Assembly (NCBI GenBank): GCA_028694875.1
Contig: JAQVKB010000001.1
Span: 1 to 25,279 of the forward strand
DNA length: 25,279 bases
Reading direction: 5' to 3'
DNA from: Candidatus Izemoplasmatales bacterium
GTDB lineage: Bacteria > Bacillota_I > Bacilli_A > Izemoplasmatales > Hujiaoplasmataceae
Shown: positions 3,465 through 20,625 of the stretch, piece by piece
How the letters are laid out: each line of letters begins with the position of its first letter
Numbering within the stretch: position 1 is the first letter of the stretch
Translations under genes and position numbers: made by a program
Notes under the pieces: generated by a model
What the model was told of the DNA's origin: nothing
Databases searched by the model: none
What the model saw: the letters and a program-made list of their open reading frames with translations, nothing else

Positions 3465-5219
3465 TTAATAGGTTGCCATCACGTTTTTGTGTTTTGGTTT
3501 TTGTTTCTTGCGTTGATGATAATGCGTATGGAGGTATTCGTGAGACAAGTGTCCGAGCGGTTCGATCAAATACTCTTCGTATAGTTTTGTAATCGCTGGG
3601 TTTTCATGGGATTTGCGAATCACCATTTTTCCATCGACTTTGTAGATGGCTTCAAGACGTTTTTGACGAACTTCGGTCGTGGTTCCATAAGGTTGTCCAC
3701 CGCCGCCAATGCATCCACCAGGGCAAGTCATGACTTCGATGAAAGCATAAGGAGATGTACCGGCTTTGATTTGTTCGGCAATGACACGCGCATTGGCCAA
3801 CGTGTGAACCACGGCGACTTTGACATCGGCTCCGCCCAAATTGACGGTCGTTTCTTTGAAGCCTTTGAGTCCACGAACATCCGTGAAATCGAGCTTTTCA
3901 AGCGGCTTTTTGTTCACGACTTCATAGACTGTACGAAGAGCCGCTTCCATCACACCACCCGTCGTACCGAAAATCGCGGCGGCGCCAGTGGTAATTCCGA
4001 ATGGGTTGTCGAATTCACTGTCGGGAAGACTTTCAAAATCAATACCCATTTGACGAATCAATTTGCCGAGTTCGCGAACGGTAAGGGCGACATCCACATC
4101 AGGATGTTTTCCATCATGACGCATCTCAGGACGTTGGGCCTCATATTTCTTGGCCGTACAAGGCATGATCGATACGACAAACAGATTTTCGGGATCCCAA
4201 CCGATTTTCTCCGCATAATAACCTTTGGCCAATGCGCCGAACATTTGTTGCGGTGATTTGCAGGTCGAGAGATTCGGTAGGATTTCTGGATAGTACGTTT
4301 CCGCGAATGAAATCCATCCAGGGCAGCAGGATGTGAGCATCGGGAGCGTGCCACCTTCGGTGACGCGCTTGATGAGTTCATTGCCTTCTTCGATGATCGT
4401 GAGGTCGGCGGTAAAGTCGGTGTCAAACACATCGTCGAATCCAAGCAAACGCAACGCGGTCGCGATTTTTCCAGTGACGATGGAACCGGCTTTCAAACCG
4501 AGTTCTTCACCCAAGGAAACGCGAACAGCAGGAGCGACTTGAACGATCGTCCGTTTACGTTCGTCATGAAGCGCATCCCATACTTTATCCGTTTCATCTT
4601 TTTCAAGAATGGCGCCAACAGGGCAAACCGAAGCGCATTGTCCACAGAACGTACAAGACTCATCAGAGAGGTACTTGCCATAGGCGGGCGTAATCTTCAT
4701 CGATTGACCGCGGCCCATGATTTCCAAAATATTCGTGGTTTGAATGTTTTTGCAGACGTCGATGCAACGACCGCATTTGATGCATCGGTTCGGGTTTCGA
4801 ACCAAAGCGGGGTTATGATCATCGATCGGTTCCATCTTCAATACCGAAGGGAATCTCGCTTGGTCGATACCAAGAATGTTCGAAAGGTTTTGCAGCTCGC
4901 AGTTCATGTTTTTTGCACAAGCATTGCAGTTCGAATCATGGTTCGTGAGAATCAATTCGGTGATGGTCTTTCTCGCATTGATGACGCGAGGGGAGTTCGT
5001 GATAATCTTCATGCCTTCCCGGACTTGGGTCGAACAAGAAGTCACCAACCCTTTTCTTCCTTCAATTTCGACGACGCAAACGCGACATTCGCTATTGATG
5101 TGAAGATCGGGATAATTGCAGAGCGTTGGAATTTTAATGTTGTTTTGTTTGGCAGCGTTGAGAATTGTGGTGCCTTCTTTGACGCTCACTGGAATGTTAT
5201 TGATCTTTAAGTTAATCAT
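3465..5219 (-). CDS. hydA: [FeFe]-hydrogenase group A catalytic subunit HydA (trimeric type)
   Basis: N-terminal [2Fe-2S] domain, His-ligated cluster (HDSNCNAC...C), two [4Fe-4S] motifs (CIKCGRCIDVC, CTFCGQCASVCP). H-cluster motifs TSCCPGW, MPCTAKKYE, EVMTCPGGCIGGGGQP. AGGAGG RBS. Confidence 0.97.
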   Translation of the reverse strand: MINLKINNIPVSVKEGTTILNAAKQNNIKIPTLCNYPDLHINSECRVCVVEIEGRKGLVTSCSTQVREGMKIITNSPRVINARKTITELILTNHDSNCNACAKNMNCELQNLSNILGIDQARFPSVLKMEPIDDHNPALVRNPNRCIKCGRCIDVCKNIQTTNILEIMGRGQSMKITPAYGKYLSDESCTFCGQCASVCPVGAILEKDETDKVWDALHDERKRTIVQVAPAVRVSLGEELGLKAGSIVTGKIATALRLLGFDDVFDTDFTADLTIIEEGNELIKRVTEGGTLPMLTSCCPGWISFAETYYPEILPNLSTCKSPQQMFGALAKGYYAEKIGWDPENLFVVSIMPCTAKKYEAQRPEMRHDGKHPDVDVALTVRELGKLIRQMGIDFESLPDSEFDNPFGITTGAAAIFGTTGGVMEAALRTVYEVVNKKPLEKLDFTDVRGLKGFKETTVNLGGADVKVAVVHTLANARVIAEQIKAGTSPYAFIEVMTCPGGCIGGGGQPYGTTTEVRQKRLEAIYKVDGKMVIRKSHENPAITKLYEEYLIEPLGHLSHEYLHTHYHQRKKQKPKHKNVMATY

Positions 5220-5232
5220 AAGTCAAGCCTCC

Positions 5233-6492
5233 TTACAGATTCGACGGATGGTCGATCCGGTCGATGTACTCGTCGCGGAAGAAGCGTAGCGACGCGATAA
5301 TCGAGGTCGGAGAGGTTTGACCGAGTCCGCACAAAGATGTCTGATGCATCACTCTGGCGAGTGATTCGAGAGAATCCAAATCTTTCGTTGTGGCTTCTTT
5401 TTTGTTGAATTTACGGATGAGTAATTCGAGTTGTGTATGACCTTCACGACATGGAACGCATTTTCCGCAAGATTCATGTTCGAAGAAATGGACGGTCTTC
5501 AATAAGATGTCGAACAAATCGAAACGGTCATCGATGACGATAATCGCACCGGAACCTGTTTTCGATTCGAATTCTTCGAAACGTTCGTAGTCAATCATCA
5601 TGTCGAGCATGTATTCCGGGATGACTGGTCCGCAAGCGCCACCGAGTTGTACCATCTTGATCTTGCGATCGTTTTTCACGCCGCCGCCAAGATCGAAGAT
5701 GACATCACGAATCGAGACACCAAATTCGATTTCATAGACGCCAGGTTTCTTCACATTCCCGGAAAGCGAAAGAAGTTTTGTTCCAGTTGACGTTGGCGTT
5801 CCCATCTTCGCATATTCTTTTCCGCCGACATTGATAATGACGGGAAGGTTCGCGAAAGTTTCCACGTTGTTGATGACGGTCGGTTTGTCAAAGACGCCTT
5901 TTTCGGTTGGGAACGGCGGTTTGACTCTGGTACGACCGGGCTTTCCTTCGATACTTTCGATGAGCGCGAATTCTTCACCGCACACATACGACCCAGCGCC
6001 ACTACGAATTTGAATGTCGAAATCAAATTTCGTATTACGGATGCCTTTCCCTAAATAGCCTTCTTCACGGGCTTTTTTAAGGCATTCATGCATGATGGAC
6101 ATCGCTTCTTGGTATTCGCCACGAATGTAGATGAACCCATGGGTCGCGCCGGTGGCATAAGCCATAATCGTCATACCTTCGATGACCGCAAACGGATCCT
6201 TTTCCAACAAGGCTTTGTCTTTGAAGTTTCCTGGTTCGCCTTCATCGGCGTTACAGATGATATATTTTGGCAGGTTGGTTTCTTTGGCGAGTCCCATCAT
6301 TTTGATGTGAGTCGGGAAACCGGCGCCGCCGCGCCCACGCAGATACGAGGCTTCAACTTCTTCGATAATGGAAATACGTTCCATTTTCAACGCTTTTGTT
6401 AAGCCAGTGTATCCTTCGGTTTTCAAATAGTCGTCCAACGAAACGGGATTGATCCGGTCAAAACGCCGGGAGATAATCTTGGTCTCTTTCAT
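5233..6492 (-). CDS. hydB: Hydrogenase diaphorase subunit HydB (NuoF-like, FMN/NADH-binding), short form
   Basis: LRGRGGAGFP, CNADEGEPG, GAGSYVCGEE and the [4Fe-4S] motif HESCGKCVPCREG...CGLG. ATG overlaps the hydC stop (TGATG); the in-frame GTG at 6495 is an alternative start. Confidence 0.93.
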   Translation of the reverse strand: MKETKIISRRFDRINPVSLDDYLKTEGYTGLTKALKMERISIIEEVEASYLRGRGGAGFPTHIKMMGLAKETNLPKYIICNADEGEPGNFKDKALLEKDPFAVIEGMTIMAYATGATHGFIYIRGEYQEAMSIMHECLKKAREEGYLGKGIRNTKFDFDIQIRSGAGSYVCGEEFALIESIEGKPGRTRVKPPFPTEKGVFDKPTVINNVETFANLPVIINVGGKEYAKMGTPTSTGTKLLSLSGNVKKPGVYEIEFGVSIRDVIFDLGGGVKNDRKIKMVQLGGACGPVIPEYMLDMMIDYERFEEFESKTGSGAIIVIDDRFDLFDILLKTVHFFEHESCGKCVPCREGHTQLELLIRKFNKKEATTKDLDSLESLARVMHQTSLCGLGQTSPTSIIASLRFFRDEYIDRIDHPSNL

Positions 6493-6950
6493 CACATGTA
6501 CACCCTGTATTCCGCGAGAATCGCTTTGATTTTGTTTGGCGTTAGTTTGGTGTAAACTTTGTCATCGATGCGCATGGCAGGTGCCTCATCGCAAAGTCCG
6601 ATGCAAGAAGTGTACTCCAGGGTGAATTGTTGGTTTTCCGTGGTTTCGTTGACTTTGATACCGAGTTCTTTTTCCAGCGTCTTCGCGACGTTGAAGTCGC
6701 TTTCGACATGGCAGGGGACGCCGCCGCAAACCTGGATGACGTGCTTGCCTTTGTTCTCCGTGCGAAAAAAAGTATAGAACGATAAGACGCTGCATACTTT
6801 GGCTTCGGAGATGTGGAGATACGATGCGATTTGACGAACTTCGTCTTCCGAGATAAAATGGTTGATTTTCGCATCTTGGAACGCAAGAAGAATTTCGAGT
6901 AGACTATCTTCTTGCTGAGGATACTTTTCCAGTATCTTGTCCAGTAACAT
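6492..6950 (-). CDS. hydC: Hydrogenase subunit HydC (NuoE-like, thioredoxin-like [2Fe-2S])
   Basis: CGGVPC and CIGLC cysteine pairs, SFYTFF and APAMRID. RBS AAGGAGG 8 nt upstream. Confidence 0.93.
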   Translation of the reverse strand: MLLDKILEKYPQQEDSLLEILLAFQDAKINHFISEDEVRQIASYLHISEAKVCSVLSFYTFFRTENKGKHVIQVCGGVPCHVESDFNVAKTLEKELGIKVNETTENQQFTLEYTSCIGLCDEAPAMRIDDKVYTKLTPNKIKAILAEYRVYM

Positions 6951-11803: not shown

Positions 11804-12094
11804 ATGAGAAAGTATGAAGTAATGTACATCATTCGTCCGACCGTCGACAAAGAAGCCAGAGATGTCTTGATTGCGGAATTAAACGCGATTTTGACCACTC
11901 GTGGCACCGAAAATGTCGAGGTTGCCGAATGGGGCACTCGTGATCTCGCCTATGAAATCAATGATTACAAAAAAGGCTATTACGTTGTGCTTACCGCGAT
12001 GGCTTCATCCGAAGCGACTGCGGAACTCGACCGCGTCATGAGGATCAAAGAAGACGTCATTCGCCATCTGATCATCTCGCTGGAAGACAAATAA
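11804..12094 (+). CDS. rpsF: 30S ribosomal protein S6
   Basis: MRKYEVMYIIRP, WGTRDLAYEI, GYY, VIRHLII. Confidence 0.98.
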   Translation: MRKYEVMYIIRPTVDKEARDVLIAELNAILTTRGTENVEVAEWGTRDLAYEINDYKKGYYVVLTAMASSEATAELDRVMRIKEDVIRHLIISLEDK

Positions 12095-12113
12095 TCCGGG
12101 AGGGGATGAAACT

Positions 12114-12584
12114 GTGTTAAACAAAGTCGTATTAATCGGTCGTCTCGTCCGTGATCCGGAATTGCGATACACGACCAACTCGAACATTCCCGTTGTGACC
12201 TTCACCATCGCGGTGAATCGTCCGTATTCATCTCAAAATGAATCGGGTGAACGTTCGAACAATAACGCGGACTTCATCAGCTGCACCGCATGGCGGAATC
12301 AAGCTGAGAATGTCAGCAAATATATGACCAAAGGTTCTATGGTCGCTGTCGACGGTAGATTGCAAACCCGCGATTATGTCGACAACAACAACGTTCGTCG
12401 CTATGTGACGGAAGTTGTATGCGATCAAGTCGTGTTCTTAGAAACACGTGCACAACGTGAAAACTATGGTGGCGGAAACAATGATAACTACGCCCCGAAA
12501 GAGAACAACGATCGAAACCAAAATCGTCGCGAAGAAGATGATCGCAAGAACATCAATATCATCGAAGACGATCTCCCATTCTAA
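12114..12584 (+). CDS. ssb: Single-stranded DNA-binding protein
   Basis: GTG start. NKVVLIGRLVRDPELRYT, ADFISCTAW, VDGRLQTR, acidic tip DDLPF. Confidence 0.98.
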   Translation: MLNKVVLIGRLVRDPELRYTTNSNIPVVTFTIAVNRPYSSQNESGERSNNNADFISCTAWRNQAENVSKYMTKGSMVAVDGRLQTRDYVDNNNVRRYVTEVVCDQVVFLETRAQRENYGGGNNDNYAPKENNDRNQNRREEDDRKNINIIEDDLPF

Positions 12585-12610
12585 AAAAATCATTCTAAGG
12601 AGGAACCATC

Positions 12611-12856
12611 GTGAGCTTTAACAAACAACAAGGTCGCGGAGGCCGCCGCAAAAGTCGCAAAAGATGTTATTTTACCGATAATAAAATTACCTATATCGAT
12701 TATAAAGATTTTGAAATGCTCAAGAGATTTATCTCTGAGCGCGGAAAAATCCTTCCGAGACGGGTAACTGGCACGAAAGCCTATTATCAAAAGCATCTCG
12801 CAGCGGCGATCAAGCGTGCAAGATTCATGGCGCTTCTGCCCTACGTCAAAGACTAG
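12611..12856 (+). CDS. rpsR: 30S ribosomal protein S18
   Basis: [33 protein letters not shown]. Confidence 0.98.
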
Positions 12857-12926: not shown

Positions 12927-12935
12927 TGGTATAAT
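12927..12935 (+). promoter_or_regulatory. Extended -10 promoter of gdpP-rplI-dnaB
   Basis: TGgTATAAT about 30 nt before the ATG. The possible -35 (TTCCAA, 12907-12912) is weak. Confidence 0.6.
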
Positions 12936-12964
12936 GTTCTTGATTTCAATAAAGGGGTGTTCAG

Positions 12965-15406
12965 ATGAACGTACGTTCCCGTGTCGGAGTTGTCCTCGGC
13001 GCATCCGCATTCGCTTTGCTGGGAATCATTGGATCTTGGGTACTATTCCCAATCCTTTCCCAATTCTGGCATGCGGTATACGTCGCTTTTTTCACGGCAG
13101 TTCCGGTAATCGTGTTCCTCTCGATTCTTCTATCCAAAAAGCGCAGGTTCCGAATCAGCGCGTTGGAAGAGAAAATTCGAGATATGAACGCGCTCAACAA
13201 ACGACTTAAAAATTCCGAAGATATCGCGCTCAATTATTTGCCCGTGGGCATGGTGATCTATGATGACAATTTCACAATTTCTTGGGCGAACAATGCCGCC
13301 AAAGAGTATTTCTCGAATGTATTGACGGGAAGAAAACTCTCGGTCGTGCATGATGAACTTGCCAAGCTCGTTGAAAAACGAGAAGGCAAGTCGATTGTCT
13401 CGATTTACGACAAGGAATATGAAATGGTCCACTATCCGAAAAACAAATGTGTCTATTTGTTTGAGGTGACTGAACGCGAAGATGCGCGGAAGAAATTGCG
13501 CGATTCGATGGATGTCGTTGGCATTTTGTCCCTCGACAATTTCGCGGAAGCGACCCAAAACTTCGACTTCCAAGAAAAAACCACAATCCAGGGAAAATAC
13601 CTTTCTTCCCTCGACAATTGGTGTAAGAAAAACAATATCTATTTTGTGAATCTTCGTCCTGAAAAATCAGTCTTGTTGTTTCATCGCAGCAAGCTCGATG
13701 AATTGGTCAAAGAAGAGTTTTTAATCATGGACGAAATCGCCGCGATTTCGAATCAAAACGAAATTCGCGTGTCGTTATCCATGGGCATCGCCTCCGGTGA
13801 TTTGGCGAGTGATGAACTCGGAGATCGAGCGGAAGAAGCGTTAAAACTAGCGCTTGGTAGAGGTGGCGACCAGGTCGTCGTCAACATTCAAAACCAACCA
13901 TTGCGTTTCTTTGGCGGGAAATCCAATACGGCCGAGAAACGCACAAAGATTACCGCGAGAATCAATTCGCGTGCACTCTCCGAATTGCTTCAAAAACATT
14001 CTCAAGTGTTCATTATGCCACATAAAATGACGGACATTGACGCCTTGGGCGGCGCCGTTGGTCTGTTGCAAATGGCGCTTGCGGAAGGCTGCGACGCGAA
14101 GATCGTCCTCGACTTTGATTTTATTGATCAAACGACGCAAAAAGTTGTCGATATGCTCAATCGCGAGTACATCAAGTTGATCTCTTATTTCGTTGATCCT
14201 GATGACGCGCTCGACCAAGTCACTTCCGACTCGCTCGTGATTGTGATCGATCATCACAGTCCAGTGCAATCAAATGCGCCAAAACTTTTGGATCGAACCA
14301 AATATGTGGTCGTCATCGACCACCATCGCCGCATCGACAACCTGTTGTCCGATGTGATGCTCAACTATGTTGAACCCTATGCCTCGAGTTCTGTCGAACT
14401 GGTGATTGAACTGATTGATCTCTATCACAAAGAAGTTAATCTTGATCCGTTCGAAGTGACGATGATGCTCGCCGGCATGATGATTGACACCAACAATTTC
14501 ACGTATCGTACGGGTGTTCGTACGTTCGAAGCGGCGGCTTTACTCAAACAGTATGGTGCCGACCCCTTCAAGGCCCGTTTGATTTTACGGGAATCGCTGG
14601 ACGATATTCGTACCAAATCGAATCTGGTCAACCAAGCGAAAATTATCATGAATCATTTTGCCATTACTGCTTTAGATCCTGAAATCAAAACCGAACGCGT
14701 CCAACTCGCGAAGACCGCCGATGAACTCTTGGAAATCGACAATATTATTGCCAGTTTCGCCCTCGGCAACATTGGCAACGACACGATCGCCATTTCCGCG
14801 CGCAGTGTCGATAAATTCAATGTCAGCGTGATGATGGAACAATTCGGGGGTGGCGGTCATTTGAACAACGCCGCCGCACAAGTTCAAAACCAACCCATGG
14901 ATGTCTTAATCAAGAAGATTGAAGATATCCTCGCTCAAACTTATAAGGAGGAACAACAAATGAAAGTGATTCTTGTCAAAGATGTTCGTGGCAAAGGGAA
15001 AAAAGGAGACGTTGTCGATGTTGCAGGCGGGTACGCCAACTTCTTGCTTTCCTCCAAACAAGCGATTGAAGCCACTACCGCGAACTTGAAAGCCTTAGAA
15101 GACGAAAAAGCGAAGGTAATCAAAGAAGCACAACTCGAATTCGAACTTGCAAAGAAAACCAAGGTCGAAGTCGAAAACGCACCGATCAAACTCTACGTGA
15201 AAATCGGGGAATCCGGAAAATTGTTCGGAGGAATCACCTCAAAACAAATTGCGGAAGAACTCAAAATCCAGTATAATATTGAGATAGACAAACGCAAAAT
15301 TGCACTGGATGACAACATCCATTCGCTCGGTTCCTACAAAGTTCCCGTGAAACTTCACAAAGACGTTCTCGCACACATCAATTTGCAGGTGCTCGAAGAA
15401 AAGTAA
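12965..15406 (+). CDS. gdpP-rplI: GdpP-type c-di-AMP phosphodiesterase (2 TM, PAS-like, degenerate GGDEF, DHH/DHHA1) fused in frame to ribosomal protein L9
   Basis: N-terminal TM helices, [37 protein letters not shown]. Residues 666-813 are a complete bL9 with no intervening stop. Confidence 0.93.
14960..15406 (+). CDS. rplI: 50S ribosomal protein L9, probable internal in-frame start within the fusion ORF
   Basis: [30 protein letters not shown]...[21 protein letters not shown] at 14945-14951 lies 8 nt before ATG 14960. Confidence 0.85.
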
Positions 15407-15416
15407 TCTGGAGGGT

Positions 15417-16781
15417 ATGATGGAAAGAAAAGTTCCGCAAAATATCGAAGCCGAACAAGCCGTATTGGGCGCGGTCTTTTTTGAACAAGCCGTCATGAAG
15501 ACCATCCAAGACAAATTGAACGAAGATGATTTCTACTCACCCAATCATCAAATCATTTTTAAGGTGATGAAATCCTTGTTCAAGGATGGTATTTTTATCG
15601 ACTATACAACCTTAACGGATCGTTTGTCGAGCCAAAACAACCTCGTTAAAGCCGGTGGCATTGAATACATCACGGGTCTTGTGGACGCGGTTCCTTCGAT
15701 TGCGAACTTGCTCAACTACATCAATATCGTCAAAGACAAATCGATTGTGCGTAAAATCCAAGATACTTGTCGTCAAATCATTGAAGATTCTTACGAAACC
15801 GAAAATACTCCTGATTTCATCGATGACGTCGAACGCGACATCATCGCCATTACCAAAGAAAAACGGACGACCGACTTCAAAGGCGTGGGTGAAATCGCGG
15901 CGCTACAAGTCGAAAAAATCGCCGAACAAGCGCAAATTGGTGGCGATGTCACCGGTTTGGATACGAAATACCATGAACTGAACAAATTCACGTTGGGTCT
16001 ACAACCTTCCGACTTGTTGATTGTCGCGGCTCGTCCTTCGATGGGAAAAACGGCGTTTGCCTTGAACCTTGCCCTCAATGTCGCGAAGAACCCGGACAAG
16101 CCCCATATCGCGTTCTTTAGTTTGGAAATGGGCGTCGACCAATTGGTCATGAGACTCTTAGCCTGTCAAGCACAGGTTGATAACTTCCGGATGCGTCAAG
16201 GTTTGCTCAACTCGACCGAATGGGAAAAAATCCACTATGCCGTCGATACCCTCTCCGGATTGAATCTTTATTTTGATGACTCCGGTACCGTCAGTGTTTT
16301 GGACCTTCGTAGTAAATGCCGTAAACTTAAACAAGATGACAAACTTGATTTGATCGTCGTCGACTACCTGCAACTCTTGTCCGGTTCGAAACACAACCAA
16401 GCGAACCGCGTGCAAGAAGTTTCGGAAATCAGCCGTGTTCTCAAAGAAACCGCGCGTGAACTGAAAGTTCCTGTGATTGCCCTTTCGCAGCTTTCCCGCT
16501 CGATTGAGCAACGGAAAGAAAAACAACCGGTCATGGCCGACCTTCGTGAGTCCGGATCGATTGAACAAGATGCCGATATCATCATGTTCTTGTATCGTGA
16601 AGACTACTACGAAGAAAACACATTACGTAAAAATCATGTCGATATCTCGATTGCGAAAAACCGTTCGGGTACCATCGGCAAATTCGAACTGCTCTTTAAC
16701 AAAAACATGTCCACGTTCTCTAACGTCCATGCTTCTACGTCTGGCGACGCCTACGACAGAGAGTATGGCACCGACATTTAG
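15417..16781 (+). CDS. dnaB: Replicative DNA helicase (DnaB; DnaC in Bacillus nomenclature)
   Basis: PQNIEAEQAVLG, Walker A AARPSMGKT, FSLEM, VVDYLQL, LSQLSR, DLRESGSIEQDAD. Confidence 0.98.
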   Translation: MMERKVPQNIEAEQAVLGAVFFEQAVMKTIQDKLNEDDFYSPNHQIIFKVMKSLFKDGIFIDYTTLTDRLSSQNNLVKAGGIEYITGLVDAVPSIANLLNYINIVKDKSIVRKIQDTCRQIIEDSYETENTPDFIDDVERDIIAITKEKRTTDFKGVGEIAALQVEKIAEQAQIGGDVTGLDTKYHELNKFTLGLQPSDLLIVAARPSMGKTAFALNLALNVAKNPDKPHIAFFSLEMGVDQLVMRLLACQAQVDNFRMRQGLLNSTEWEKIHYAVDTLSGLNLYFDDSGTVSVLDLRSKCRKLKQDDKLDLIVVDYLQLLSGSKHNQANRVQEVSEISRVLKETARELKVPVIALSQLSRSIEQRKEKQPVMADLRESGSIEQDADIIMFLYREDYYEENTLRKNHVDISIAKNRSGTIGKFELLFNKNMSTFSNVHASTSGDAYDREYGTDI

Positions 16782-16801
16782 CGGTCGCGAGACTGCTTTT
16801 T
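16781..16801 (+). terminator. Intrinsic terminator after dnaB
   Basis: GCGGTC-GCGA-GACTGC-TTTTT: GNRA loop, one G-U pair, starts on the last base of the stop codon. Confidence 0.7.
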
Positions 16802-17910: not shown

Positions 17911-18764
17911 TGCCAACATATCGCCAAGCCTTGCGCGAAGGCGAAAAGATGGCTCATGCGAATCACATGGAAAGTTCCGCGGCGAAAGTATTGTTATTGC
18001 ACCATTCTGAAATGGAAAATGCGGCGCTTTATTTGCATCTCGACGATGTCATGTCTGAAGCACAATACGCAGGTTTTCTTGAAGGATGCCATCGTCATTT
18101 TGAACGCAAAGAACCGGTTCAATATGTCGTTGGGTATACCTATTTCTATGGATACAAGTTCCATGTGGATGAACGCGTTTTGATTCCTCGTTTTGAAACC
18201 GAAGAACTCGTCGCCAATGTGCTCTTTCATTATGATGAAATGTTTGATGGGAAAGACGTTGCCCTTGTCGATGTCGGCACCGGATCGGGTTGCTTGGCCG
18301 TCGCTTTGGCGTTGGAAGAAAGTCACCTTCACGTCTCGGCGAGCGATATTAGCGAAGCAGCTTTGGCTGTCGCGAAGCAGAATGCCGCGTATTTGAATAG
18401 TCCCGTCACTTTCACGCAAGGAGACATGTTACAGCCTTTCGAAGGAAAGAAATTTGATATTCTGGTTTCGAATCCTCCGTACATTCCCGATGAAGAATTC
18501 GTCGAAGAAATCATCAAGAATCACGAACCCCATACGGCCTTGTTTGGCGGATCGGATGGACTCAAGTTCTATGAGATCATCCTATCAGGAGCCAAGGACA
18601 TTTTGAACGAAGAAAACTTCCTGGCGTTCGAACACGCGTATAATACCAAAGACGCACTGAAAGAACTTGCGCTTCGGTATTTTCCCGAAGCTGAAATCGT
18701 TCAATATCAAGATATGCAAGGCAAAGACCGAATGACCTTTGTCATCAACCGTCGGAAATCATAA
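17910..18764 (+). CDS. prmC: Release factor glutamine methyltransferase PrmC/HemK
   Basis: VLIPRFETEEL, SAM motif DVGTGSGC, SNPPY, GGSDGL. TAATG overlap with prfA. Confidence 0.97.
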   Translation: MPTYRQALREGEKMAHANHMESSAAKVLLLHHSEMENAALYLHLDDVMSEAQYAGFLEGCHRHFERKEPVQYVVGYTYFYGYKFHVDERVLIPRFETEELVANVLFHYDEMFDGKDVALVDVGTGSGCLAVALALEESHLHVSASDISEAALAVAKQNAAYLNSPVTFTQGDMLQPFEGKKFDILVSNPPYIPDEEFVEEIIKNHEPHTALFGGSDGLKFYEIILSGAKDILNEENFLAFEHAYNTKDALKELALRYFPEAEIVQYQDMQGKDRMTFVINRRKS

Positions 18765-18778
18765 ACCGGCGGTTTTTT
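18747..18778 (+). terminator. Intrinsic terminator overlapping the prmC 3' end
   Basis: AACCGTCGG-AAATCATAAA-CCGGCGGTT-TTTT. The stop codon lies in the loop. Confidence 0.65.
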
Positions 18779-18843
18779 ATTTCACCCTATGATATAATGG
18801 TTTCTAGACACCGTAGATGCCCTATTTCGAAGGAGGTGACGTC

Positions 18844-20625
18844 ATGAAAGCAACCCCTATGTTTCCAGAAATTCCCGATTGGGCCAAACGCCAAATTGAA
18901 GCCATTCCTGCCAAAAGCGAAGACCCCGTCTATGCGAGTTTGTGCATTCTCCTGGAAAATTGGAATGTCTATGATGACGCCATCGATCGCACTGTCTGGT
19001 TGGCGCTCTTCCCGAAAGAACAAGATGAGAATGTCATTCTCCGATTCTCAGAAATTCTGGAAAGTGCCAAGAAATTGACCGAAGATCAACGCAATCAACT
19101 GGCAAAATCGACGCCGATGCTCAACAACCGACAATATGATATTGTCTATCAAGCAATTTTAAAACAAAGACAATTTTTAGGAGCTTCGGACCGAAAAGCC
19201 TACATTGGCGATTTTGTTCAAGCCATCCTCGATGAAATCCGTTCAGGAAGCATGCGTGAGGATAGTGAACATCTTCATAAAATCCTTCAAGATGACAACT
19301 TGCATTTGTTCAAAGCCTATTTGGAAGAAGGATCTTTCGAATTGGAAATGAAAACGTATCATGAGGATACGTTGTTTCACGCCGCCGCCAAAGCCAATGC
19401 CATCCGCATTTTGGGTTATTTGATTTCTGAAGTTCCAACCTGGATTGAAGAAGATAACCGATATCATGAAACCCCACTCTTTTCCGCCGCCATCGCGGGC
19501 TCCCAAGAGGCGTTTGATCTCTTGATGTCGAGAGGGGCCAACCCCAATCGCCTTTGTGAACGCAACGCAACGCCGCTTTCTGCCGTGGTTTATTCCGAAA
19601 ATATCCAGTTTCTCGATCATCTCCTGGATGACTATCACATCGAAGGCGAACGCTTGATTCATCCCGATCTATTGCTTGATGCCATGGAAGATGAAAGGAT
19701 CGAAGGAATCGTCCACTTGTTGCGAAAAGGTGTGTTCGAAATCACGAAACCCTATGACCATGGTAGAACCCTCTTCACGATGGCCTTAACCGCGAACAAT
19801 CCGATGTTTGCGACGAGACTATTGAATGAGTTTCATTATCCCAAAGATTTACCCGATGAGATTGGTTATTTCCCAATCCATGCGGCCATCGAGTTTGATC
19901 AAGTAGATTTGTTCCAACAATTATTGGGCGAAGGCTATGAAGACATGACGATGTATGGCGAGACGATGCTGGAAGTCTCGATCATTCATCATGCCAAAGC
20001 TTGTTTTCCTTTGCTTTATGCTAGAAATGGTCATCGTTTTGATGACCTTACACGTGCGACATGGTTTGCGTCCAAAACAGCTTTTGTGGAAGTGCTACGA
20101 GAACTCAAAAAACATGATGCTACCTTCACTTTGTTTGCGAACCAAACATCTCCGATTGTCGAGATGATGAGAAATGACCGATCCAGCATGGTTCTGGAGT
20201 TTCTCGACATGACTGATGTCGAAACTCACAATATGGAGAAGATTCCTTTGTTGATTGACCCTACCTTCCATCAAGATATGGAAGTGGTCTCAAAACTATT
20301 GGACATGGGGGCCGATCCCAATATCCCTGTAATCTATGGAAAAAAGTCTTTCTATCCATTGATGAATGCCATCTTCCATGACAATCTTCCGATGGTGAAA
20401 CTACTGACCAATCATGGTGCGGATGTGAATTTGAAAACAATCGACGGTTGGCGTGCTCTGGATGTCGCGATCACGGAACACGTAAGCGAAGTCCTGTTGG
20501 AATATCTTCGTGATTTAGGTGCCAAACGCTCTTTTTGGAAAATAGCAAAGATCAAACCGATTCTTGGATTGATCTTCGTCATTCTGTTAGGATTGATTTA
20601 TCTGTATCAATTATTCTTGGCATAA
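18844..20625 (+). CDS. Ankyrin-repeat protein with a C-terminal transmembrane tail
   Basis: Start ATG 18844 after GGAGGTG. Repeats include TLFHAAAKAN, ETPLFSAAIAG...GANPN, FPIHAAIE, GADPN...YPLMNAI, GADVN...WRALDVA. Ends KIKPILGLIFVILLGLIYLYQLFLA. Confidence 0.88.
   Translation: MKATPMFPEIPDWAKRQIEAIPAKSEDPVYASLCILLENWNVYDDAIDRTVWLALFPKEQDENVILRFSEILESAKKLTEDQRNQLAKSTPMLNNRQYDIVYQAILKQRQFLGASDRKAYIGDFVQAILDEIRSGSMREDSEHLHKILQDDNLHLFKAYLEEGSFELEMKTYHEDTLFHAAAKANAIRILGYLISEVPTWIEEDNRYHETPLFSAAIAGSQEAFDLLMSRGANPNRLCERNATPLSAVVYSENIQFLDHLLDDYHIEGERLIHPDLLLDAMEDERIEGIVHLLRKGVFEITKPYDHGRTLFTMALTANNPMFATRLLNEFHYPKDLPDEIGYFPIHAAIEFDQVDLFQQLLGEGYEDMTMYGETMLEVSIIHHAKACFPLLYARNGHRFDDLTRATWFASKTAFVEVLRELKKHDATFTLFANQTSPIVEMMRNDRSSMVLEFLDMTDVETHNMEKIPLLIDPTFHQDMEVVSKLLDMGADPNIPVIYGKKSFYPLMNAIFHDNLPMVKLLTNHGADVNLKTIDGWRALDVAITEHVSEVLLEYLRDLGAKRSFWKIAKIKPILGLIFVILLGLIYLYQLFLA

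Follow-up and report, generated by a model that had tools for sequence, protein, structure and literature searches.

Several bacterial genes yield two proteins from one reading frame by internal initiation of translation; examples are infB, which encodes the alpha and beta forms of IF2, clpB, and cheA with its long and short products. GdpP is the main enzyme that degrades cyclic di-AMP (c-di-AMP) in Firmicutes, and its regulation is only partly understood. Its gene is nearly universally adjacent to rplI, the gene for ribosomal protein L9 (bL9), and to our knowledge nobody has explained why. Here we analyze gdpP::rplI, an open reading frame (ORF) in which the two genes are fused, in a metagenome-assembled genome (MAG) of a Candidatus Izemoplasmatales bacterium (GCA_028694875.1). 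The window, that is, the whole stretch of DNA analyzed, consists of 25,279 nucleotides (positions 1 to 25,279 of the forward strand of contig JAQVKB010000001.1). An initial annotation of this window proposed that the ORF encodes two proteins, free L9 translated from an internal start and a membrane-anchored GdpP-L9. Comparative evidence supports this proposal: the internal Shine-Dalgarno (SD) sequence and start codon are conserved among fused orthologs, both signals are lost where a separate rplI exists, and the fused L9 domain of those genomes evolves under purifying selection. We consider it quite likely that the ORF yields free bL9 from the internal start together with a full-length GdpP-L9 the L9 module of which is itself selected.

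The closest described systems fall into three groups. The first is the gdpP (yybT)-rplI-dnaB(dnaC) operon (PMC4568413). As found in Bacillus, Staphylococcus and most genomes of the class, it has the same gene order as the window and an SD sequence in the 3' end of gdpP, but the gdpP stop codon lies at −23 to +15 nucleotides from the rplI ATG, hence two separate proteins. The second group consists of genes already catalogued as fusions under NF011110 / PRK14538 ('putative bifunctional signaling protein/50S ribosomal protein L9'), which have the same ORF layout (transmembrane segments, PAS, GGDEF, DHH, DHHA1 and L9) and the same position between rpsR and dnaB. RplI has likewise been marked "fusion" in Acholeplasma laidlawii (ACL_0196) and in phytoplasmas (PAM012, PA0149 and ATP_00177) (Grosjean et al. 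2014, PMC4014445 Table S3). The window gene differs from these fusions in belonging to Izemoplasmatales and not to the Acholeplasma/phytoplasma group. The initial annotation, which pointed to the PRK14538 model, was right in regarding the fusion as probably not new: the window protein matches NF011110 end to end (protein positions 40-813 on profile positions 56-836 of 838; E 5.2e-199), and the GdpP-L9 fusion itself is old and already catalogued. The score of 663.3 bits does not reach the curated equivalog cut-off of 707 bits, and we treat the window gene as a divergent ortholog of the catalogued fusion that falls below the NCBI equivalog threshold.

The third group comprises the genes with internal initiation. 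The window gene resembles infB, clpB and cheA in having an in-frame internal SD and start, so that the shorter product would be identical to the C-terminal part of the long form. It differs from them in that the short product would be a ribosomal protein of ancient identity and that gene fusion gave rise to the long form; furthermore, the two products of gdpP::rplI are predicted from sequence, and we infer that both proteins are produced. Under this model, ribosomes would initiate at the internal AAGGAGG-N8-ATG to make free bL9 of ~16 kDa, and those starting at the weaker gdpP SD would read through to make a membrane-anchored GdpP-L9 of ~91 kDa. In the latter, the L9 fold would constitute a C-terminal module of the c-di-AMP phosphodiesterase, ~5 residues after the last DHHA1 helix, retained by selection for a role of its own.

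The fused gene and its distribution

The frame and its translation were read from 12965 to 15406 on the + strand, and no stop separates DHHA1 from L9, which confirms the uninterrupted frame reported by the initial annotation. The features of the gene are as follows.

12965..15406, + strand: gdpP::rplI, one ORF of 813 codons plus a TAA stop (NF011110 match, E 5e-199)
12951..12959, + strand: SD sequence of the gdpP start, AAAGGGGTG (−8.0 kcal/mol, versus −11.1 for the internal SD)
12986..13135, + strand: two N-terminal hydrophobic (transmembrane) segments, residues ~8-57, read directly from the translation
13208..13468, + strand: GdpP-type PAS domain, residues 82-168 (PF21370, 60.6 bits)
13529..13897, + strand: degenerate GdpP GGDEF domain, residues 189-311 (PF24898, 91.4 bits)
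14003..14935, + strand: DHH/DHHA1 catalytic phosphodiesterase domain, residues 347-657 (PF01368 and PF02272; PDB 9n0l and 5xsi, E 1e-68)
14945..14951, + strand: internal SD sequence AAGGAGG, coding for Lys-Glu-Glu (AAG GAG GAA) and kept in 48 of 50 fused orthologs
14960..14962, + strand: internal bL9 start codon, ATG, Met666 of the fusion (ATG, GTG or TTG in all single-copy fused orthologs)
14960..15403, + strand: complete bL9 of 148 amino acids with N domain, long helix and C domain (TIGR00158, 125.6 bits; PDB 1div, E 5e-38; AlphaFold2 layout)

All four GdpP Pfam models (PAS, GGDEF, DHH and DHHA1) exceed their cut-offs, DHH spanning residues 347-505 and DHHA1 residues 573-657. The catalytic motifs IDHHRR (DHH) and GGGGH (GGGH) are present and invariant across 58 aligned sequences. 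Hydrolysis of c-di-AMP is presumed, a DAC-domain cyclase encoded in the same MAG being its sole supporting context. The L9 part scores far above the TIGR00158 cut-off (58.6 bits) and consists of Pfam L9_N (residues 666-711) and L9_C (residues 729-810). Among solved structures, residues 89-662 match GdpP (9n0l, E 8e-69) and residues 666-813 match bL9 (1div). The solved GdpP chains (9n0l and 5xsi/5xsn/5xsp) and bL9 chains (1div and many ribosome entries) each correspond to one part of the fusion, and no chain with both parts was among the structure matches. An AlphaFold2 model of residues 321-813 has a mean predicted local distance difference test (pLDDT) score of 87.7 and a predicted template modelling (pTM) score of 0.56; in this model, the last DHHA1 helix ends around residue 659 and the first L9 strand starts from Met666, leaving a linker of ~5 residues.

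The source MAG comprises 1.45 Mb in 277 contigs and is 70% complete, and no other L9 match was found in it. Because this is the single L9 match, the bL9 encoded here is presumably the ribosomal L9 copy of the cell; likewise, in the absence of a second copy among the matches, the free L9 translated from the internal ATG would be that ribosomal protein.

The fragmentation and incompleteness of the MAG lend some initial plausibility to an assembly or sequencing artefact, in which a lost base or a chimeric join would have removed the gdpP stop. Such an artefact is very unlikely, with a probability close to nil, because L9 sits in an uninterrupted frame of ~810-870 amino acids in 40 of the 41 genomes of the order, which span 3 families and 21 genera. 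Moreover, the same frame and junction occur in more than 150 independent genomes, complete ones included, and hundreds of database proteins of 811-823 amino acids carry the same fusion. Close database homologs are labelled Candidatus Izemoplasmatales, and the named carriers include Izemoplasma/Izimaplasma, Liberiplasma polymorphum, Acholeplasmataceae, Mariniplasma and gut "Mollicutes" MAGs. NCBI names the orthologs of the window gene '50S ribosomal protein L9'.

Two other families also carry the fusion, f19 in 44 of 46 genomes and f12 in 45 of 46; the other three genomes have no L9 match. The split form was not seen in any genome searched from these two families and the three families of the order. 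Three apparent exceptions, with frames of 175, 329 and 576 amino acids (G323, G024 and G363), were rejected, being cut at contig or locus ends. Across a class-wide sample of 400 genomes, most families encode a stand-alone L9 of ~150 amino acids. The initial annotation likewise describes gdpP-rplI-dnaB as a conserved Firmicutes gene order, normally of separate genes.

A further family, f18, was considered as a possible phytoplasma group but is not fused: its loci L080 and L081 (in G083 and G055, genomes of 0.5-0.6 Mb) encode a stand-alone L9 with an in-frame TGA. This TGA is consistent with the use of genetic code 4 (TGA = Trp) in f18.

Probable internal translation initiation signals

The junction codons, ACT TAT AAG GAG GAA CAA CAA ATG, place AAGGAGG 8 nucleotides before the L9 ATG at 14960. 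The initial annotation likened this geometry to that of the best ribosome-binding sites in the window. More than chance is at work: of 200 in-frame internal ATGs in the window genes (mean −2.3 kcal/mol), none pairs more strongly with the anti-SD than the L9 ATG, whose −11.1 kcal/mol equals the best true starts (−11.1 to −11.8 kcal/mol). Of the 10 AGGAGG hexamers in the window, at least 6 sit 6-8 nucleotides 5' of a recognizable gene start. All coordinates in the initial annotation proved correct; one of its suggestions, concerning an out-of-frame TAA at 14944-14946, did not survive. The triplet is present, but it exists because Tyr is coded as TAT and is missing in relatives with TAC, TTC or ATC before AAG. 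In split relatives, gdpP stops 3' of the SD, within or beside the spacer that separates SD and ATG, and the TAA was rejected as the ancestral gdpP stop.

Like the fusion itself (40 of 41 genomes of the order), the internal SD is conserved in the relatives surveyed. Among 50 fused orthologs, the median pairing energy at the junction is −11.1 kcal/mol, with values of −8 kcal/mol or lower in 48 and −10 kcal/mol or lower in 43. A value of −8 kcal/mol is reached by just 0.4% of the 680 other in-frame ATGs of the same ORFs, and the junction is the strongest SD site in 48 of 49 ORFs. The first SD codon is always xAG (AAG, CAG, AGG or GAG, for K, Q, R or E) and is followed by GAG, at a codon usage in the fused genes of 26% AAG among Lys codons and 20% GAG among Glu codons. 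When the SD was resampled with synonymous codons, the median p value per genome was 0.027, and 33 of the 50 values were below 0.05. Because codon choice holds xAG GAG against the codon usage of the gene, we conclude from the codons that selection acts on the nucleotide sequence of the internal SD.

The start codon shows the same pattern. Codon 1 of L9 is ATG in 48 of the 50 orthologs, with one GTG and one TTG, and ATG in 74 and GTG in 6 of 80 named loci; start-capable codons alone occupy this position in single-copy fused orthologs. In addition, predicted RNA structure is weaker at the junction than elsewhere in the ORF (−5.4 versus −8.9 kcal/mol), and in 32 of 48 loci the junction ranks within the least structured quartile.

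The GTG starts and the single TTG come from some Acholeplasmataceae, Mariniplasma and gut lineages (loci L033, L044, L149, L154, L156-L158 and L162), where they are preceded by a strong SD of the GGAGGAGG type. At these positions, read-through ribosomes are expected to insert Val or Leu, and initiating ribosomes formylmethionine.

Genomes with an additional stand-alone rplI

Ten genomes of family f19, from two genera, carry the fused gene and, 11-35 nucleotides further on, a separate rplI that has an SD and an ATG of its own:

L066-L075: duplicate-bearing loci, in genomes G438, G169, G182, G418, G419, G424, G428, G433, G434 and G436

The stand-alone rplI copies were found on many independent contigs, and therefore the duplicate arrangement is no assembly accident. 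Two of these MAGs are labelled 'Erysipelotrichaceae bacterium' (MBE6131040.1) and 'Bacilli bacterium' (MBP3504166.1) at NCBI.

In none of the ten fused copies is L9 position 1 a start codon (it is AAG in five, ATT in two, and GCG, ACT and TTA in one each), and all ten have lost the SD, with pairing energies of −2.9 to +0.6 kcal/mol. Several of them keep the peptide K-E-E-E in the recoded form AAA GAA GAA GAA, and the start-type codons within 20 codons of the junction all pair with the anti-SD at −6.4 kcal/mol or more weakly. The ATG persists in two single-copy genomes of the same genus: L077 has AAGGAGG at −11.1 kcal/mol and L076 a weaker site at −6.4 kcal/mol. The loss of SD and start in ten of ten duplicates is as expected if the internal signals exist for free L9.

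This loss bears on the possibility that the fused polypeptide is the sole product and serves as ribosomal L9 itself, so that L9-bearing ribosomes would be tethered to membrane GdpP. The single frame and the single L9 copy are in line with such an arrangement, as are solved ribosomes that hold an L9 longer than 148 residues with extra N-terminal sequence (plastid bL9c). However, the SD and start are conserved by codon choice and disappear once a separate rplI is available; the SD of gdpP, being the weaker of the two, is ill-suited to a protein needed once per ribosome; and the linker of just ~5 residues is short. We regard the fused polypeptide as sole product as distinctly improbable.

Under the dual-product model, the GdpP-linked L9 module has a role of its own, and the duplicate genomes allow this part of the model to be considered separately from free L9. 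The GdpP DHH and GGGH motifs are intact in these genomes. The fused L9 domain remains an open frame of 144-159 amino acids with the fold-defining residues retained, and AlphaFold2 predicts the canonical L9 layout for it (pLDDT 83-91), from an alignment that included canonical sequences. Among five closely related duplicate genomes, the pooled ratio of nonsynonymous to synonymous substitution rates (dN/dS) is 0.24 for the fused L9 domain (bootstrap 0.18-0.32), 0.17 for the free copy and 0.14 for the catalytic part of GdpP. Judging from these ratios, the fused L9 module of the duplicates is under purifying selection. It evolves faster than the free copy, with tree branches of mostly 0.45-2.7 against mostly 0.2-0.9, both being shorter in the five close genomes.

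The fused copy has also changed in its surface. Canonical invariant surface residues are lost (K7 to E, G24-Y25 to E/D-Q, and K81, G83, K87, F89-G90 and H133), and the net charge of the N domain falls to −2.1, compared with +3.1 in free copies and split outgroups, +0.7 in the single-copy fused genomes of f19 and +2.5 in the order of the window. The N domain of bL9, a non-essential protein, binds between helices H15 and H76 of 23S rRNA (PMC3335287). Because the fused L9 turns acidic and loses invariant surface residues, the GdpP-linked role probably does not need canonical rRNA binding, and for the same reason a tethering of 50S subunits by the fusion, which the initial annotation suggested, is if anything less likely. 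We read this divergence as a division of labor after duplication, in which the ribosomal role favors a basic surface and the GdpP-linked role does not. A more specific interpretation, which we put forward tentatively and would not rate quite as high as even, is that GdpP has recruited the L9 fold as a functional C-terminal module whose role does not require canonical ribosome binding, that a single-copy sequence has to serve both the ribosome and GdpP, and that some gut Acholeplasma-like lineages have resolved this conflict by duplication of rplI, with a more basic free copy and an acidic fused copy devoid of the invariant L9 surface residues. Between one and three duplication events are possible; the L9 tree used to count them leaves 12 of its 29 inner branches open and has the fused copies of the duplicate genomes on long branches.

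Selection on the fused domain in the GdpP frame, in genomes without the SD, is also pertinent to recoding. Internal SD sequences stimulate frameshifting in prfB and dnaX, and by this precedent the internal SD of gdpP::rplI could cause a frameshift such that GdpP ends near the junction, for example at the +1 TGA that the ATGA at the L9 start provides at 14961-14963, and no fusion protein is made. That TGA merely follows from L9 starting with Met-Lys, and the junction has neither a slippery heptamer nor an in-frame stop at a suitable distance; frameshift recoding was rejected on this account and, given also the selection in the GdpP frame, we deem it highly improbable.

Origin of the fusion and interpretation

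In 13 of 15 split outgroups, gdpP lies directly 5' of rplI; the gdpP stop is found between −23 and +15 nucleotides relative to the rplI ATG, and the final gdpP codons contain the rplI SD. Three of these outgroups have the gdpP stop in frame with rplI, so that one point mutation would be enough for fusion. The fusion probably arose by loss of a stop codon at a tightly packed gdpP-rplI junction.

The ease of this step is also an argument for neutral read-through, in which the stop was lost by accident, free L9 suffices, and the L9 tail on GdpP is tolerated and functionless. In keeping with such neutrality, the AlphaFold2 model does not place L9 in a fixed position on the enzyme (pTM 0.56), and we found no function of the fusion described in the literature. 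Our search found no functional study of the fusion, of c-di-AMP in Izemoplasma or of ACL_0196, and the bL9 passages of a recent review of extraribosomal bL9 functions contain no GdpP-L9 fusion. However, the spacer codons GAA, CAA and CAA are each one substitution away from TAA, yet no reversion was seen in the genomes searched across five families. Furthermore, the fused L9 that stands beside a free rplI stays open, with even the upper bound of dN/dS at 0.32, and changes in a consistent direction that does not resemble decay. Neutral read-through is, accordingly, an unlikely explanation in our view.

Several points weigh against the dual-product model. The MAG is only 70% complete, so that a second rplI is conceivable in this organism. 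For neither product did our literature search turn up protein-level data, ribosome profiling or transcript evidence, whatever the organism. The pTM of 0.56-0.58 in the AlphaFold2 models carries no information on the placement of L9 relative to the enzyme. The duplicate genomes belong to another family than the window, and what they suggest is carried over by homology. The relatives in the conservation counts are not independent, so that the statistical weight of these counts is overstated. Finally, the SD motif also codes for Lys/Gln-Glu-Glu, and conservation at the peptide level could contribute; the codon-choice test and the duplicate genomes argue against this.

A whole branch of wall-less Bacilli has fused gdpP with rplI and kept the fusion. 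That an L9-shaped module was kept on GdpP after a separate rplI had been regained points to a real functional link between the two, and the duplicate genomes would represent natural separation-of-function alleles. With respect to annotation, such genes would be better named bifunctional, with an internal L9 start, than '50S ribosomal protein L9'.

Gene neighborhood and other features of the window

The fused gene is flanked by the following features, and the order further downstream is dnaB-prfA-prmC.

11804..12856, + strand: rpsF-ssb-rpsR, upstream, in conserved gene order
12927..12935, + strand: possible extended −10 element upstream of gdpP, TGGTATAAT (from a reading of the sequence only; the promoter scan made no call)
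15417..16781, + strand: dnaB, 10 nucleotides downstream of the fused ORF, with its own SD, GGAGG, at 15410-15414
16780-16797: terminator-like hairpin at the end of dnaB

The element TGGTATAAT lies ~30 nucleotides 5' of the gdpP start, and the accompanying −35 is weak. The gdpP::rplI-dnaB genes may have a promoter of their own, besides read-through from rpsF-ssb-rpsR. The promoter scan called no site just 5' of L9; its lone plus-strand site within gdpP, at 13999-14028, is weak (9 of 12 matching).

A hairpin with a T-run follows prmC at ~18764-18777. Downstream, at 18817-20625 (+ strand), a protein of ~600 amino acids with many ankyrin repeats is encoded, which is unusual for a free-living wall-less bacterium. 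It has AAGGAGG at 18830 and an in-frame ATG at 18844, which suggests that the true start of this gene is 9 codons inside the longest ORF; TATAAT is present at 18793. On the − strand, a three-gene [FeFe] hydrogenase cluster at 3465-6950 encodes a large subunit with N-terminal Fe-S domains, a Nuo51-like flavoprotein and a thioredoxin-like 2Fe-2S protein, and resembles the electron-bifurcating HydABC type.

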